Of a DNA stretch of 64,000 nt, positions 12,587 to 21,553 are shown in pieces. A model generated the notes under the pieces. That model did no database searches, had not been told where the DNA came from, and worked only from the letters and a program-made list of their open reading frames with translations. Source of the DNA: Lachnospiraceae bacterium (GTDB taxonomy: Bacteria > Bacillota > Clostridia > Lachnospirales > Lachnospiraceae); the NCBI GenBank assembly GCA_017450065.1, contig JAFSYI010000028.1:1172-65171 (forward strand), given 5' to 3'. The position numbers and the translations under genes are program-made. The stretch's first letter is position 1. Each line of letters opens with the position of its first letter.

Positions 12587-12673
12587 CCTGATACCTCCCG
12601 TGTAAATGTCATACAGTATATTTTAACCTAAATGCTCCTGTAATTCAACATAGACGGTATGAAGAAATTCGGT

Positions 12674-12716
12674 CAAAAAGAATAACCAGGGGCGTCTTTC
12701 GACGCCCCTGGTTATT
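12674..12716 (-). terminator. Rho-independent terminator of the DUF4867/FucI-family operon
   Basis: Perfect 16-bp stem (12681-12696 pairs with 12701-12716) with a 4-nt loop, followed on the minus strand by CTTTTT. Confidence 0.85.
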
Positions 12717-12799
12717 ACTTCGCGGTACCCCTTATGACGAATACCCACCATCAAGCAAGCTTGTGGTGTTGACAGGCTTTTGACCCTTTAATCATGATA

Positions 12800-14287
12800 T
12801 TACTTAAAAGGGTTCTCGGTAGGATAAGGAAGTGATGCCGGCTGATTGTAACCGATCTCATCAACCTTAACGCCGATGTACTTAAATACCTCGAACAGTG
12901 CCTTTCCGAAATGTCCGAAAGCAACTGCTCCGTGATGAGGATAATTCTTCTCAATAAGAACATGACGGTAGAAACGTCCCATCTCAGGTATAGCGAATAC
13001 ACCGATACCACCGAAGGATCTTGTTGCTACAGGAAGAACCTCGCCTTCTGCCACATATGCGCGAAGGATCGAATCAGCTGTTGACTGCAGTCTGTAGAAG
13101 GTAACAGGTCCGGGAACGATATCGCCTTCAAGTGTTCCGTTTGTAACCTCAACAGGAAGTGAACGTGCCATGATAGCCTGATTCTTCATCTCGCAGCTTG
13201 TAAGCTTCTTGGAGCAGGTATTTCCGCAATGGAAGCCCATGAATGTATCTGTATGCTTGTAATCGAACTTACCCTTGATGCTGTCGTCATACATGCACTT
13301 GGGAACTGAGTTGTTGATATCAAGAAGAGTAACGATATCATCACTTACACAGGTTCCGATATACTCGCTTAAGCAGCCGTAGATATCAACCTCGCAGGAT
13401 ACGGGGATTCCGCGTCCCGTAAGACGTGAATTAACATAGCAGGGAACGAATCCGAACTGGGTCTGGAATGCCGGCCAGCACTTACCTGCGATTGCAACGA
13501 ATTCCTTGGATCCCTTATGTGCTTCGATCCAGTCAACAAGAGTAAGCTCATACTGAGCAAGCTTGTTAAGAACCTCGGGCTTCTTGTTTCCTGCGCCAAG
13601 CTCCTCTGCCATTTCCTTGGCAACATCAGCGATCCTCTTGTCATCTGCATGATTGTTAAATGACTCGAACAGATCAAGCTCTGAATTCTCCTCAATCTCA
13701 ACACCAAGGTTGTAAAGCTGCTTGATAGGTGCATTACAAGCCAGGAAGTTAAGAGGTCTGGGACCGAATGATATGATCTTTAAGTTCTGGAGTGCATATA
13801 CGGCACGTGCGATCGGTACAAAATCATGGATCATGTCAGCGCAATCCTCAGCATCGCCTACGGGATACTCGGGAATATAAGCCTTAACATTACGAAGAGC
13901 CAGATTGTAGCTTGCATTGAGCATACCGCAGTAAGCATCGCCACGTCCGGAAGTCGTTACAGAGTCATAATCCTCCTCTGCGGCTGCACAGAACATCTTG
14001 GGACCGCAGAACTGCTGAGCCAGCATTGTCTCGGAAATCTCGGGACCGAAGTTGCCAAGATATACGCACAGTGCGTTACATCCTGCCTTCTTGATATCCT
14101 CAAGAGCCTGCTGCATATGGATCTCGCTCTCAATGATGGTAACCGGGCACTCATAAATATCAGCTGCATCATACTTCTTAGCGTATGCATCTGCAAGAGC
14201 CTTTCTTCTTCTGATGGTAAGCTCAGCAGGGAAACAGTCACGGCTGACGCCAACGATACCGATCTTCACTTTAGGTGTGTTGTTCAT
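12800..14287 (-). CDS. L-fucose/L-arabinose isomerase family protein (COG2407-like), substrate unknown
   Basis: 495 aa. N-terminus KIGIVGVSRDCFP... and overall composition match the FucI-like family. AAAGGAGAAG RBS. Confidence 0.75.
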   Translation of the reverse strand: MNNTPKVKIGIVGVSRDCFPAELTIRRRKALADAYAKKYDAADIYECPVTIIESEIHMQQALEDIKKAGCNALCVYLGNFGPEISETMLAQQFCGPKMFCAAAEEDYDSVTTSGRGDAYCGMLNASYNLALRNVKAYIPEYPVGDAEDCADMIHDFVPIARAVYALQNLKIISFGPRPLNFLACNAPIKQLYNLGVEIEENSELDLFESFNNHADDKRIADVAKEMAEELGAGNKKPEVLNKLAQYELTLVDWIEAHKGSKEFVAIAGKCWPAFQTQFGFVPCYVNSRLTGRGIPVSCEVDIYGCLSEYIGTCVSDDIVTLLDINNSVPKCMYDDSIKGKFDYKHTDTFMGFHCGNTCSKKLTSCEMKNQAIMARSLPVEVTNGTLEGDIVPGPVTFYRLQSTADSILRAYVAEGEVLPVATRSFGGIGVFAIPEMGRFYRHVLIEKNYPHHGAVAFGHFGKALFEVFKYIGVKVDEIGYNQPASLPYPTENPFK

Positions 14288-14427
14288 TTTTTCTTCTCCT
14301 TTTCATAGTTGGTGTTTTTTCACTGTTAACATCAAAACAGCCTGATATCAATGTTTTGATGCTGGATTTTGTTTAATTGGTAATTCTCTTTATAACTGTC
14401 GGCCATTATCGATATCTGAATGTATTA

Positions 14428-15051
14428 TCATTCATCAACATTTATGTTCTTGCCAACCAGTCCGTTGAACGCTCCGTCTATCTTAGCATCCGGATGACCT
14501 ATAAGCCATTTATTCCTTGCAAACAACAGCTTGTCCTCAGGTGTTGCCTCTGCCTTGAAATCAAGATCCGTATTTGTGCCTTTGGGAAGTACAACCACGC
14601 ATCTGAACTTGTTACCCTCATAATTGCACGGTGCATAGTGAAGAGTAGTCGCATAGCATTCAACAGCCGTACCTGCAGGTATATGGAAAGCTACTATCTT
14701 AGATGTATCATAAGTAAAATCATCTGTTATGTCGGATTCGCTTCCCCATAACATGATCAGATCGGTAACAGCTACGTTTATCTCCGAATCCCTGTGGTAC
14801 TCAACTGCATTAAGCATCACGTTGTCGCCGTTACAGAAGCCGATCTGGACCGGCATCCCGCCATACAGGCTCTCTGCCACCTGCTTAGCCTCAGGTGCTG
14901 CTTCAAGCTCAGGCTGTGAAGGAACATATACAACCTCACCGTCGGGGCATGGCATATTTCCCATTTCCCTGATGATATTTGAGAAATCAATTCCGGTAAT
15001 GACTTTACCGTATTTCCTGAATTCAGGATCGTTAACACTCAGAATTTTCAC
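14428..15051 (-). CDS. DUF4867-family protein (cupin-like)
   Basis: 207 aa starting MKILSVNDPEFRKYGKVI..., recognised from memory as DUF4867. GTG start lies after AAAGGAGA. Confidence 0.55.
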   Translation of the reverse strand: MKILSVNDPEFRKYGKVITGIDFSNIIREMGNMPCPDGEVVYVPSQPELEAAPEAKQVAESLYGGMPVQIGFCNGDNVMLNAVEYHRDSEINVAVTDLIMLWGSESDITDDFTYDTSKIVAFHIPAGTAVECYATTLHYAPCNYEGNKFRCVVVLPKGTNTDLDFKAEATPEDKLLFARNKWLIGHPDAKIDGAFNGLVGKNINVDE

Positions 15052-15102
15052 TTAATTATCTCCTTTCTTCTAAGGAATTCCCCTCTTTTAGGAACCCCTC
15101 CA

Positions 15103-15131
15103 AATATTAGTTTAATAACTAAACTAATTCA
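15103..15131 (-). promoter_or_regulatory. Promoter overlapped by a TTAGTTT...AAACTAA palindrome (XylR-type operator candidate)
   Basis: On the minus strand: TTGAAT (15131-15126), 17-nt spacer, TAATAT (15108-15103). The palindrome ATTAGTTTA-ataac-TAAACTAAT (15105-15127) fills the spacer. Confidence 0.5.
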
Positions 15132-15164
15132 ATAAAATAATGCTAACACCGGTATACGGTGTTA
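15131..15164 (-). terminator. Terminator after the DegT-family gene
   Basis: Stem CTAACACCG (15142-15150) pairs with CGGTGTTAG (15156-15164), followed on the minus strand by ATTATTTTAT. Confidence 0.6.
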
Positions 15165-15171
15165 GTCAATA

Positions 15172-16284
15172 CTAACCACATACACACTCTTTTATTATAC
15201 TGCAGATCCTGTCAACCTCTTTAAGCTCAAGCTCAGGATAAACCGGCAGGGTAAGCACACTTTCACTGATATATCTTGCCACCGGCGTATCATTATTGTC
15301 AAAGCGGCCTTTATAGCAGGTAAAATCATTGGTCGCAGGATAGAAATACTTACGCGCCATTATACCGTTTTCATACAGCTTTTCAAACACCTGGTCTCTG
15401 TCGGTCCCAAAGCTCTTTTTGTCAAACACTACCGGATAATAAGCGTAATTGCTCTTCACTTCCTTAGGAATCCTGTTAAGCTTAAGTCCCTTTATCCCTT
15501 CAAGATTCTCATCATATCTAACGCATACCTTCTTACGGGCACTGATATATTCTTCAATATGGCGCAGATTGCACAGCCCCATTGCCGCACAGAATTCATT
15601 CATCTTGGCATTGGCTCCGATGGCACTTACCTCTTCCGGTCCGTGAATACCGAAATCCTTAAGGTCGTATATCCTTTCACCCACTTCATCATCCCTGTAG
15701 CACACACAGCCGCCCTCTATCGAATTAAATACCTTGGTGGCATGGAATGAAAAGCAGGAAGCATCACCAAAGCAGGCCACTCCCCTGCCTTTATAGGTCT
15801 CGCCAAAGGTATGGGCTGCATCATATATAACCTTAAGGCCATGTCTTTTGGCAAAATCGTCTATAGCCTCTATATTGCATATATTTCCATACACATGAAC
15901 AGGAAGGATTGCACAGGTTTTTGATGTCAGCAGCGACGCAAGCCGGTCCGGATCGATGGTATAGTCATCCGGATTGATATCGCAAAAAACAGGCATGAGG
16001 CCGCTCCTTACTATTGCATGGGTAGTCGACGCAAAGGTAAAAGGCGTAGTAATGACCTCTCCCCTTAAGCCCATGGCCTGAAGAGTCATCTCAATAGCCA
16101 TATGCCCGTTAACAACCAGCTCGACATTGTCCGTCTTAAGATACCTGACAAGCTCTTTTTGGAGAAGATTGTGCTTCGGTCCCATGTTTGTAAGCCAGTG
16201 TGAATCCCACATTGACTTTATCTCCTCCATATATTCTTCCATCGGGGGCATACTGGCCCGTGTTACCATTATTTTACTCTTCAT
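15172..16284 (-). CDS. DegT/DnrJ/EryC1/StrS-family PLP-dependent sugar aminotransferase
   Basis: About 370 aa. Contains FSFHATKVF (PLP-lysine motif), and the N-terminus is typical of the family. The ATG at 16284 has better AAGGGA spacing than the one at 16290. Confidence 0.85.
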   Translation of the reverse strand: MKSKIMVTRASMPPMEEYMEEIKSMWDSHWLTNMGPKHNLLQKELVRYLKTDNVELVVNGHMAIEMTLQAMGLRGEVITTPFTFASTTHAIVRSGLMPVFCDINPDDYTIDPDRLASLLTSKTCAILPVHVYGNICNIEAIDDFAKRHGLKVIYDAAHTFGETYKGRGVACFGDASCFSFHATKVFNSIEGGCVCYRDDEVGERIYDLKDFGIHGPEEVSAIGANAKMNEFCAAMGLCNLRHIEEYISARKKVCVRYDENLEGIKGLKLNRIPKEVKSNYAYYPVVFDKKSFGTDRDQVFEKLYENGIMARKYFYPATNDFTCYKGRFDNNDTPVARYISESVLTLPVYPELELKEVDRICSIIKECVCG

Positions 16285-16429
16285 AAACATTCCCTTACTT
16301 ATTCCGGCCGCGGATTTTCTTATAATATATCCTTCCCCTGCAGGAAGGTTGTATCTGAATCATTATAATACTTATCTATTATTTTATAAAGAGGCCGGAG
16401 CATAAGGATATTTTTTTGTCCCGTCCCAA

Positions 16430-16454
16430 TTAGTTTACTTATTAAACAAATTAG
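16430..16454. promoter_or_regulatory. 25-bp XylR-type operator overlapping the promoter of the ROK regulator gene
   Basis: TTAGTTTACTTATTAAACAAATTAG matches 19 of 25 positions of the B. subtilis xylO as I remember it (TTAGTTTATTGGATAAACAAACTAA). It overlaps TTTACT (16434-16439), a 17-nt spacer and TATACT (16457-16462). Confidence 0.5.
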
Positions 16455-17801: not shown

Positions 17802-19265
17802 TTAGAACAGTGACTTCATTGTCGGATAGAGCTGCTTAAAGTACTGATATTTCTTCTCGTATTTAGCGGTAAGCTCTGCATCAGGCTTAACCACGTCAAT
17901 AACCTTCACCAGCTTGTCGGCTGCTTCTTCAACAGATGCATACTCGCCGCAGCCTACTGCCGCAAGGATCGCACCGCCGTAGCCCGGTCCTTCCTCCGAT
18001 TCAATAACCTCAACCGGAATACCCAGTACATTGGCCATCATCTTCTTCCACAGAGGTGACTTGGCGCCGCCGCCGCAGATCCTGGTACTTTCGATCTTAA
18101 TTCCCTGTGACCTTGCCACTTCGAAGGAATCGCGGATTCCGAAGCATACACCCTCAAGTACCGCCTGTGTCATATCAGCTCTTGTCGAATCCATGGACAT
18201 TCCGATGAATACCGCCCTGGCATCGGGATTGTTGTGAGGCGAACGCTCTCCCATAAGGTAAGGCATGAAGAATACATTATTCTCTCCGAGCTTATCGTCA
18301 GTTATAGGCTCCTGCTCCTTCTTGAAATCACTCGTTCCGATGATATCCTCCATCCACCATTTATTGCATGATGCAGCCGAAAGCATACAGCCCATAAGAT
18401 GGAAATGACCGTCGGAATGAGCAAACGCATGAAGCGCATTCTGATCATCAACCACGAAATCCTTGCTGGAAATGAAGATCGTTCCGCTGGTTCCGAGTGA
18501 AATATTACACTTACCGTCTCCGACCGTTCCGGTTCCCACTGCAGCTGCCGCATTATCGCCGGCGCCTGCGATTATCTTGACTTCCTTCGGGAATCCGAGT
18601 TCATCTGCGATCTCAGGCTTGATATTTCCCACAACCTCGTAACTTTCGAATATCTTTGCAAGCTGCGATTCCTTAATACCGCAGATATCCATCATTTCCT
18701 TGCTCCAGCATTTGTTCTTAACATCAAACACAAGCATTCCGGAAGCATCCGATACATCGGTACAGTGTACGCCCGAAAGCTTATAAGCAAGGTAATCCTT
18801 GGGAAGCATTATCTTCTCGATCTTTTCAAAATTATCAGGCTCATTCTCCTTCATCCACAGGATCTTTGGAGCAGTAAAGCCGGCAAACGCAATGTTGGCG
18901 GTATATTCGGACAGCTTGTCCTTACCGATCACGTTATTAAGATATTCGGTTTCCTTCGTAGTCCTGCCGTCATTCCACAGAATAGCCGGTCGGATCACAT
19001 TGTCATCCTTATCAAGAACAACCAGTCCGTGCATCTGTCCGCCGAAGCTTATTCCTGCGATCCGGCTCTTGTCACATTCGCTCGTAAGCTCCTTAAGTCC
19101 TGCCATAGACTGTTCCCACCAGTCCTCCGGCTTCTGTTCAGACCAGCCGGGATGCGGAAAGCTTAACGGATATTCCTTCGACACGATCTTCTCGATCTTG
19201 CCGTCTCCGCTCATAAGAAGCATCTTAACCGCACTTGTTCCTAAATCCACACCAATATACAACAT
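17802..19265 (-). CDS. xylB: Xylulokinase
   Basis: MLYIGVDLGTSAVK..., FGGQMHGLV and GGGAKSPLW are FGGY-family xylulokinase signatures. AAGGAGGAG RBS. Confidence 0.9.
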   Translation of the reverse strand: MLYIGVDLGTSAVKMLLMSGDGKIEKIVSKEYPLSFPHPGWSEQKPEDWWEQSMAGLKELTSECDKSRIAGISFGGQMHGLVVLDKDDNVIRPAILWNDGRTTKETEYLNNVIGKDKLSEYTANIAFAGFTAPKILWMKENEPDNFEKIEKIMLPKDYLAYKLSGVHCTDVSDASGMLVFDVKNKCWSKEMMDICGIKESQLAKIFESYEVVGNIKPEIADELGFPKEVKIIAGAGDNAAAAVGTGTVGDGKCNISLGTSGTIFISSKDFVVDDQNALHAFAHSDGHFHLMGCMLSAASCNKWWMEDIIGTSDFKKEQEPITDDKLGENNVFFMPYLMGERSPHNNPDARAVFIGMSMDSTRADMTQAVLEGVCFGIRDSFEVARSQGIKIESTRICGGGAKSPLWKKMMANVLGIPVEVIESEEGPGYGGAILAAVGCGEYASVEEAADKLVKVIDVVKPDAELTAKYEKKYQYFKQLYPTMKSLF

Positions 19266-19292: not shown

Positions 19293-21476
19293 TTAATTCT
19301 CATTTTTCATCTGGTCGGGAACCATAGAACCGTCCCCCGGTCCCACTTCAACCTTTACGGGTTCAACGCCGCACAGGCTGACACTGCGTTCATCAGGCTG
19401 GCTTACGCCCGCATACAGGGTGAAGCTCTTTGAGTCAAGCACCCTTACACCCTCTTCGTTATATTCCATGAAAGCCTTTCCCGGAACACCAAGCGATACG
19501 CTTAACTCTTCACCTGCCTTAAGCTCCACTCTCTTAAATGCACACAGACTGTGGTTCCTGACGGCAAGCGGAGACTCATTATCCTTTATATACACCTGGA
19601 TAACCTCCTCTATAGTACCGGTACTCTCATTTCTTATGGTAACATCCATATTAACGGAAGTCATCTCAAGAACATCCGGATCAGCGGCAGCCTTCTTAAA
19701 TGCTTCTGTATCAAGCCTTGCCGCCTTCATCATAACCCTGCCGTAGGTAAGACCGTAACCGAAGGGATACTGGGCCTCATTCTCCATATATCTGTAGGTT
19801 CTTCCCTTCATGGAGTAATCTGTGAACTCCGGCAGTTCATCAAGTGAATTATATAATGTTATCGGGAGCTTACCCGAAGGCGATACCTTACCGAAAAGTA
19901 TATTTGCGAAGGCTTTTCCTCCCTCTGCACCGGGATACCATGCCTGGATGATCGCCTTAACATTGTCCGCATCCATAGCAAATGACAGATCCATTGCCGA
20001 TCCTGTCATAACCGCCAATACTACCGGCTTACCCGTAGCGATAACGGCTCTGGCCATTATCATCTGGGATTCCGGGAAATCAAGGCTTGTTTTATCACCT
20101 GAAGCATAGCTGTTTCCGGTATCTCCTTCTTCACCCTCCAGCGTTTCGTCAAGCCCGACAACCAGCACCACTACATCCGAATGCTTTGCTACCGTCTTGG
20201 CCTCTGCCAGCCTGTCGTTTTCAACCGCAAGAGCCTCAACCCTGTCCTTATACAGATGAGAGCCCTCTGAAAACAGTACATTTATATTGGGACCTGCTTC
20301 ATCCTGAATGCCTTCAAATATCGTGGTATATCTTGATGCCGTTCCATGATAATTTCCGATAAGAGCAACCCTGCTGTTAGCATCCGGTCCTATAACTCCT
20401 ATGGTCTTAACCCCGCCCTTGTTAAGCGGCAGGAATCCGTCATTCTTAAGAAGAACCATTGCCTTTTCGGCCACGCTTACCGCATAATCCCTGTGCTCGC
20501 GGCACTCAACCTTCTCATAGGGTATGCTGTCATATTCGCTTCCGTCAAACAGTCCCAGCATAAACCTTGTGGTATACAGCCTTACACATGCTCTTGTTAT
20601 CTCTTCCTCTGTTACCAGACCATCTTTAAATGCCTTCATTAAATGTATATATGTATTTCCACAGTTAACGTCACAGCCCTTTTTAAGAGCCAGAGCAGCC
20701 GACTCTTCAACAGTCTTTGTCACCATATGATGTTCGTGGAAATCCCTTATTGCCCAGCAGTCCGATACAAAGTGTCCCTCAAAGCCCCATTCACCCCGGA
20801 GAATATTCTCCATAAGCTCTGTATGGGCACAGCAGGGTTCACCGTTTGTACGGTTATAAGCTCCCATGACTGCCTCTACGCCTGCTTCCTTAACACACTC
20901 CTCAAATGCCGGAAGATATGTCTCGCGCATATCCTTTTTGGAAGCCTTGGCATCAAACTCATGTCTTAGAGCCTCGGGACCCGAATGCACCGCAAAATGC
21001 TTGGCGCAGGCCGCTGTCCTTAAGGTCTCCCCGTCTCCCTGAAGTCCTTTTACATAGGCGGCTCCGAGTCTGGAGGTAAGTAACGGATCCTCTCCCAGTG
21101 TCTCATGTCCTCTTCCCCATCTTGGATCACGGAAGATATTAACATTGGGAGACCACATGGTAAGACCCTTATATATATCCCTGTCACCCTCTTTGGAAAC
21201 CGCATTGTACTTGGCTCTTGCCTCGGTTGATACTATTTCTCCGGCTTTCCTCACCGTTTCCTCATCAAAGGTGGCGGCCATCGCGATCGCCTGTGGAAAT
21301 ACGGTTGCCTGACCTGATCTTGCCACTCCGTGAAGAGCTTCATTCCACCAGTTATAAGCCGGGATACCCAGTCTTTCTATTGCCGGAGAATCATATTTTA
21401 ACTGACTCGCCTTCTCTTCAACAGTCATTTTGCCTACAATTTCTTCAGCTTTTCTTCTTGCCTCTTCTCTGTTCAT
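19293..21476 (-). CDS. Glycoside hydrolase family 3 (beta-glucosidase/beta-xylosidase type)
   Basis: Contains MTVEEKASQL, NWWNEALHG, RDPRWGRGHETLGEDP and GHFVSDCWA (GH3 nucleophile region). Likely start is the ATG at 21476, after AGAAGGAAA. It lies 27 nt upstream of xylB. Confidence 0.85.
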   Translation of the reverse strand: MNREEARRKAEEIVGKMTVEEKASQLKYDSPAIERLGIPAYNWWNEALHGVARSGQATVFPQAIAMAATFDEETVRKAGEIVSTEARAKYNAVSKEGDRDIYKGLTMWSPNVNIFRDPRWGRGHETLGEDPLLTSRLGAAYVKGLQGDGETLRTAACAKHFAVHSGPEALRHEFDAKASKKDMRETYLPAFEECVKEAGVEAVMGAYNRTNGEPCCAHTELMENILRGEWGFEGHFVSDCWAIRDFHEHHMVTKTVEESAALALKKGCDVNCGNTYIHLMKAFKDGLVTEEEITRACVRLYTTRFMLGLFDGSEYDSIPYEKVECREHRDYAVSVAEKAMVLLKNDGFLPLNKGGVKTIGVIGPDANSRVALIGNYHGTASRYTTIFEGIQDEAGPNINVLFSEGSHLYKDRVEALAVENDRLAEAKTVAKHSDVVVLVVGLDETLEGEEGDTGNSYASGDKTSLDFPESQMIMARAVIATGKPVVLAVMTGSAMDLSFAMDADNVKAIIQAWYPGAEGGKAFANILFGKVSPSGKLPITLYNSLDELPEFTDYSMKGRTYRYMENEAQYPFGYGLTYGRVMMKAARLDTEAFKKAAADPDVLEMTSVNMDVTIRNESTGTIEEVIQVYIKDNESPLAVRNHSLCAFKRVELKAGEELSVSLGVPGKAFMEYNEEGVRVLDSKSFTLYAGVSQPDERSVSLCGVEPVKVEVGPGDGSMVPDQMKNEN

Positions 21477-21553
21477 ACTGTTTCCTTCTGCTATATTGTC
21501 ATATAATCCTGCCAACGTAATAATCATAACTTATTTTTCTGGTATGTACAAGG

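Follow-up and report, generated by a model that had tools for sequence, protein, structure and literature searches.

A D-xylose isomerase of a non-classical type was described in Clostridium acetobutylicum by Gu et al. in 2010 (PMC2873477), where the product of CAC2610, annotated as "fucose isomerase related", was recognised as a non-orthologous xylose isomerase and named XylA-II. In that work, disruption of CAC2610 abolished growth on xylose, the gene complemented an E. coli delta-xylA strain, the purified protein showed 1.9 U/mg of xylose isomerase activity in vitro, and binding of XylR to the region ahead of the CAC2611-xylA-II operon was seen as a shift of this DNA (PMC2873477). The classical XylA (TIGR02630, a TIM barrel) catalyses the same reaction at the same place of the pathway and is also regulated by XylR in Firmicutes, but it is unrelated to XylA-II in fold and in sequence. 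In later literature, the xylose route of clostridia and Lachnospiraceae is already ascribed to XylA-II. Here we analysed a stretch of 64,000 nucleotides from a Lachnospiraceae bacterium (contig JAFSYI010000028.1; hereafter, the window), focusing on a two-gene operon for a DUF4867 protein and a FucI-family isomerase that is very probably the orthologue of the C. acetobutylicum operon.

Two other described systems are close to it. In C. phytofermentans, also a member of the Lachnospiraceae and compared here by its description, xylA-II (Cphy_0200) has the same 23-bp operator type and xylR is autoregulated; this species also has a classical XylA (Cphy_1219), with xylA-II listed separately (PMC2873477). 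The sulfo-SFT pathway likewise combines a FucI-family aldose-ketose isomerase, SftI, with a DUF4867 cupin, SftX/SqvB, and the 2His-2Glu site of the latter is conserved (PMC11968277; PDB 9GYY), although substrate and gene cluster (sulfoquinovosidase, transaldolase) are different. As for FucI of E. coli, it shares the C-terminal PF02952 domain with the window isomerase but differs in size and genomic context, and XylA-II was reported to have only around 14% similarity to it (PMC2873477).

The operon and its published counterpart

The operon (Table 1) runs as a discrete unit from a GTG at 15051 to a stop at 12800, as originally predicted. Its first open reading frame (ORF) encodes a 207-aa protein matching the Pfam family DUF4867 (PF16161; E 6e-88, 294 bits), and the second one a 495-aa protein with a Fucose_iso_C domain (PF02952, L-fucose isomerase C-terminal domain; E 3e-33). 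The latter showed 71% identity and 82% positives with CAC2610 along its full length (residues 1-495), and the DUF4867 protein showed 58% identity, also full length, with CAC2611, the "hypothetical protein" of the C. acetobutylicum operon. An AGGAG that precedes the GTG start by 8 nt gives it support, as does the alignment with CAC2611, which begins at residue 1 of both proteins. The C. acetobutylicum locus used for comparison was verified by the exact mapping of eight out of eight primers and of both XylR sites published in PMC2873477. Orthologous proteins encoded in the same order argue that the window holds, with high probability, the orthologue of the published operon, the 495-aa protein being a predicted XylA-II xylose isomerase whose activity in this organism we infer from the 71% identity and the genomic context. 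A search of PDB with this isomerase gave no match. The original prediction had proposed that a FucI-family enzyme provides an alternative isomerisation step feeding XylB under XylR control, which agrees with the XylA-II system; the idea is not new, as this system has been known since its publication in 2010.

The C. acetobutylicum operon agrees with that of the window in both genes and their order and in having an XylR site upstream, and the genome is likewise devoid of classical XylA. In C. acetobutylicum xylB is immediately upstream, whereas in the window it comes behind a GH3 gene, at a distance of 2.7 kb, and the window XylB is 37% identical to CAC2612. The XylR of C. acetobutylicum recognises a different, 25-bp motif (ACTTattAAA-N5-TTTaaAAAgt), unlike the 23-bp site of the window. 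Finally, the two genes are separated by 15 nt in C. acetobutylicum and by 140 nt in the window. This spacer contains a 12-bp hairpin with no T tract (fold of -15.7 kcal/mol), and in 51 other genomes the corresponding gap ranged from 18 to 340 nt, so it was taken as intra-operon. No Rfam match was detected in the 5' untranslated region or in the intergenic spacer of the operon. The strong terminator predicted at 12674-12716 was found again in the terminator scan at 12716-12681, with a 16-bp stem including 9 GC pairs and followed by a T run.

Table 1. Positions of the features discussed, in window coordinates.
Feature	Position	Strand	Basis
Intrinsic terminator of the operon	12681..12716	-	Terminator scan
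xylA-II, predicted FucI-family (PF02952) D-xylose isomerase	12800..14287	-	Pfam and full-length CAC2610 orthology
Intergenic spacer of 140 nt, taken as intra-operon	14288..14427	-	Fold and gap lengths elsewhere
DUF4867 cupin metalloprotein, first gene of the operon	14428..15051	-	PF16161 and CAC2611 orthology
Predicted XylR operator, 23-bp perfect palindrome ATTAGTTTAATAACTAAACTAAT	15106..15128		
Probable sigma-70 promoter TTGACT-18-TAGCAT, TG-extended -10	15140..15169 (15169-15140)	-	Promoter scan, 9/12
DegT-type aminotransferase	15172..16290	-	
Second predicted XylR operator ATTAGTTTACTTATTAAACAAAT, over the xylR promoter	16429..16451		
xylR, ROK-family repressor with N-terminal winged helix	16498..17703	+	Pfam ROK and MarR_2/HTH_24
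xylB, xylulokinase	17802..19265	-	TIGR01312, 581 bits against a cut-off of 380
GH3 protein upstream of xylB, best NCBIfam match beta-xylosidase Xyl3A (below cut-off)	19293..21527	-	

The window had been noted to have no canonical xylA, and the search for classical XylA (TIGR02630) was negative both there and in the whole assembly, which is 88% complete. The window isomerase was the only PF02952 protein of the genome. In a survey of one genome from each of 201 Lachnospiraceae genera, this one included, an orthologue of XylA-II (E <= 1e-100) was detected in 129 genomes and classical XylA in 20, with both present in 10, so that XylA-II is about six times commoner in the family than the classical enzyme. 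Metabolic models and marker-gene screens that rely on xylA alone consequently under-call the use of xylose by gut and rumen Lachnospiraceae. For the organism analysed here, all the steps leading from xylose into the pentose phosphate pathway are predicted to be present despite the lack of a classical xylA in the assembly, and the annotations "L-fucose/L-arabinose isomerase family protein" and ROK gene would be better replaced by xylose isomerase XylA-II and xylR, respectively.

Predicted XylR operators and the probable operon promoter

Upstream of the operon lies a perfect 9+9 palindrome, ATTAGTTTA-ataac-TAAACTAAT, at 15106-15128. It had been recognised as such in the original prediction, 1 nt away from its true position (15105-15127), and its half-sites TTAGTTT and AAACTAA had been attributed to the Firmicute XylR type, in agreement with the published 23-bp motifs. 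These are 23-mers of the form nTTAGTTTA-N5-TAAACTAAn in Bacillus, Geobacillus, Caldicellulosiruptor, and C. phytofermentans (Additional file 2, PMC2873477), the site of xylA-II in the last one being cATAGTTTtaTGACTAAACTAAT (PMC2873477). The second copy predicted next to the ROK gene was also real; however, it is not the longer, 25-bp form thought to span 16430-16454, but a site of the same 23-bp geometry as the first one. Because both window sites share the geometry TAGTTTA-N5-TAAAC of the published ones, the reservation that the operon site is too short compared with a 25-bp xylO is void. XylR-type operators of the form TTAGTTTA-N5-TAAACTAA were thus found at the xyl genes and at the promoter of xylR itself, whose product contains a Pfam ROK domain (residues 83-381) preceded by MarR_2/HTH_24 matches (residues 11-60). 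The position of the second site implies a putative autoregulation of xylR.

A pattern search along the genome found its best copies before the xylA-II operon, xylR, and tkt, the three sites with at most one mismatch all preceding pentose genes. The third one, GTTAGTTTATTCATTAAACTATC (contig C80:16133-16155), precedes a split transketolase (tktN/tktC) by around 150 bp, and would bring the pentose phosphate pathway into the predicted XylR regulon. Transketolase is an XylR target in C. beijerinckii too (PMC2873477, Additional file 2).

Regarding the promoter, the element TTGAAT-17-TAATAT, with its spacer filled by the palindrome, had been proposed. This candidate was rejected, as it scored 8/12, was absent from the list of the promoter scan, and its hexamers were not conserved in four orthologous loci, so the assignment was probably wrong. 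A better element, TTGACT-18-TAGCAT, was found upstream of the operator, with its -10 hexamer ending 11 nt before it and with its spacer overlapped by the terminator hairpin of the DegT gene (15165-15143). In all four orthologous loci (4/4) the end of a good sigma-70 promoter was 7-12 nt ahead of the operator. The scan and this conserved position indicate that TTGACT-18-TAGCAT is probably the operon promoter, which would give the operator a position of about +1 to +25, outside the promoter spacer. Either arrangement should lead to repression, so the regulatory logic first proposed is unchanged.

According to the mechanism that we propose, in the absence of xylose the ROK repressor XylR would bind the 23-bp palindrome located just downstream of the operon promoter, or overlapping it, and also its own promoter and that of tkt; by analogy with XylR of Bacillus, xylose would be expected to release it. 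XylA-II would then convert D-xylose into D-xylulose in place of the TIM-barrel XylA, XylB would phosphorylate the xylulose, and the split transketolase, putatively controlled by XylR, would feed the product into the pentose phosphate pathway.

Alternative readings and the role of DUF4867

Some results weigh against the identification of the operon as an XylR-controlled XylA-II system. At 88% completeness, a classical xylA could be present but unassembled. No XylR site was found before the GH3-xylB unit, leaving the regulon incomplete here. As regards the part of DUF4867, 42 of the 129 genomes with XylA-II lack it. In addition, the exact operator pattern was not enriched across the family survey, with 19 sites against around 31 for a reversed control; therefore, only some genera seem to use the motif in its exact form, and we relied on the position of the sites and not on their number.

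The enzyme could act on another sugar, such as L-arabinose, L-fucose, D-arabinose, or sulfoquinovose, the xylose context being then a coincidence. Its Pfam domain is in fact common to L-fucose isomerase, but no N-terminal domains of FucI were detected with Pfam and no NCBIfam match to FucI was obtained, so that an identity as L-fucose isomerase proper was rejected for a protein with the C-terminal PF02952 domain only. Similarly, its sole NCBIfam match was the sulfoquinovose isomerase SftI (NF048012), and DUF4867 proteins do appear in sulfoglycolysis clusters (PMC11968277), but the score was 69 bits against a cut-off of 700. The 71% identity to an experimentally proven xylose isomerase, the location of xylB next to the gene in 22 of the 29 related loci, and the XylR-type operators common to xylR, xylB, and tkt make a different substrate highly improbable. 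Little room is left as well for the two proteins forming an obligate two-subunit isomerase. Such a complex would fit the co-occurrence of both families in 87 of 89 genomes and the position of DUF4867 as the first gene in 49 of 51 adjacent pairs, but CAC2610 on its own shows activity in vitro and can complement an E. coli delta-xylA strain (PMC2873477), for which reason an obligate heteromer was rejected; moreover, to the XylA-II genomes lacking DUF4867 should be added 36 more that encode it elsewhere in the genome.

A further alternative concerns the palindrome, which might have arisen by chance as an AT-rich repeat, or might be recognised by some regulator different from the adjacent ROK protein. 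The exact pattern TAGTTTA-N5-TAAACTA (14 specified bases) was found at 2 sites of the 3.22-Mb assembly, an enrichment over 60 composition-matched permuted palindromes scanned along the same genome (mean of 0.08 exact sites, maximum of 1), although when one mismatch was allowed the number of sites (3) was reached by 25% of the permutations and was not unusual in itself. The lack of family-wide enrichment over the reversed control also speaks for chance, as do the many foreign sites adjoining genes without an assigned identity. However, of the 17 exact sites in foreign genomes, 4 were located at around 100 bp or less upstream of DUF4867-xylA-II(-xylB) or xylA-II-xylB operons in four other genera, two of them shared with a divergent ROK gene encoding a protein 46-49% identical to the window XylR. 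Further foreign sites precede xylB in a fifth genus (one site) and lie near tkt (one or two). Together with the match to the published XylR sites (PMC2873477) and the location of the three best sites of the genome itself, this makes an origin by chance, or the action of an unrelated regulator, very hard to sustain, in favour of XylR as the regulator of the xylA-II operon.

Since CAC2610 works alone, DUF4867 is best considered an accessory protein and not a subunit, that is, a conserved but dispensable cupin metalloprotein that would act as partner of XylA-II. The survey detected it in 89 out of 201 genomes, 51 of which had it next to xylA-II on the same strand. A match to the crystal structure 9GYY (E value of 3e-54) was obtained for the window protein, in which the 2His-2Glu metal ligands are conserved as E84, H86, E90, and H138 (residue numbering from PMC11968277). 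In the similarity network of that paper, the largest DUF4867 cluster adjoins PF02952 isomerases and FGGY kinases, and occasional fusions to FGGY kinases were also reported (PMC11968277). As a tentative guess, DUF4867 might be a metal-dependent ring-opening enzyme or anomerase acting on a 2-ketose (D-xylulose here, sulfofructose in sulfoglycolysis) at the hand-off from isomerase to kinase, where it would speed the ring opening or the interconversion of anomers of D-xylulose. This guess was made because a 2-ketose is the intermediate in all the contexts, because of the relatedness to ureidoglycolate lyase, and because of the FGGY fusions (PMC11968277). It would explain why DUF4867 follows FucI-family isomerases across different sugars, its co-occurrence with XylA-II, and the fusions with kinases; on the other side, the only tests in print, for mutarotation of sulfoquinovose and sulfofructose by SftX, came out negative (PMC11968277), and we regard this role as doubtful. 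A single GalM gene was found in the genome of the organism, on contig C34. Given its near-exclusive co-occurrence with XylA-II, DUF4867 could be studied more simply in the xylose system than in sulfoglycolysis.

Neighbouring genes and minor observations

The neighbours xylB, GH3 gene, and ROK repressor were as originally described, according to Pfam and NCBIfam, with both xylR and xylB at 4 kb or less from the operon. The association of xylB with xylA-II was also seen in related loci, as 22 of the 29 closest ones had an xylB homologue 59-78% identical to that of the window immediately next to xylA-II, and 4 had split transketolase genes there. The GH3-xylB unit is served by a short promoter region of its own, located past the terminator of a gene for a major intrinsic protein (MIP, aquaporin-type). 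The start of the GH3 ORF at 21527 is devoid of a ribosome-binding site, and the ATG at 21476, which is preceded by GAAGGAAA, is probably the true start.

Between the operon and xylR there is a DegT/DesI-like aminotransferase gene (15172-16290, reverse strand), each side having its own operator. Two other genera have xylR and the xylA-II operon in direct divergent orientation, with a single operator for both. Judging from this arrangement, the DegT gene looks like an insertion that split a divergon.

As candidates for xylose uptake, paired genes for XylF-like periplasmic binding proteins were detected at contigs C83:72088-74388 and C28:18274-23319, with scores (271 and 205 bits) below the xylF cut-off; similar xylF pairs, of sensor plus transporter, are found in C. 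beijerinckii.

A perfect match to the consensus of the catabolite-responsive element (cre) of CcpA, TTGTAACCGATCTCA, was found at 12846-12860 of the forward strand, within the last 60 nt of xylA-II. The scan covered 4 kb, for which around 0.06 perfect matches are expected by chance, and gave no match in the operon promoter. Its odd position makes a function in the catabolite control of the operon implausible.

Finally, the region 3' of xylA-II that includes the terminator hairpin (12641-12794, reverse strand) showed a weak, full-length Rfam match to the Clostridiales-1 RNA (RF01699), with 29 bits against a gathering score of 48. In the genome, 17 copies of this RNA (on contigs C24, C10, C22, and C95, among others) exceeded the gathering score, reaching up to 132 bits, and several were located at contig ends. 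The motif behaves here like an interspersed multi-copy element, and the terminator of the xyl operon may be a decayed copy of it.

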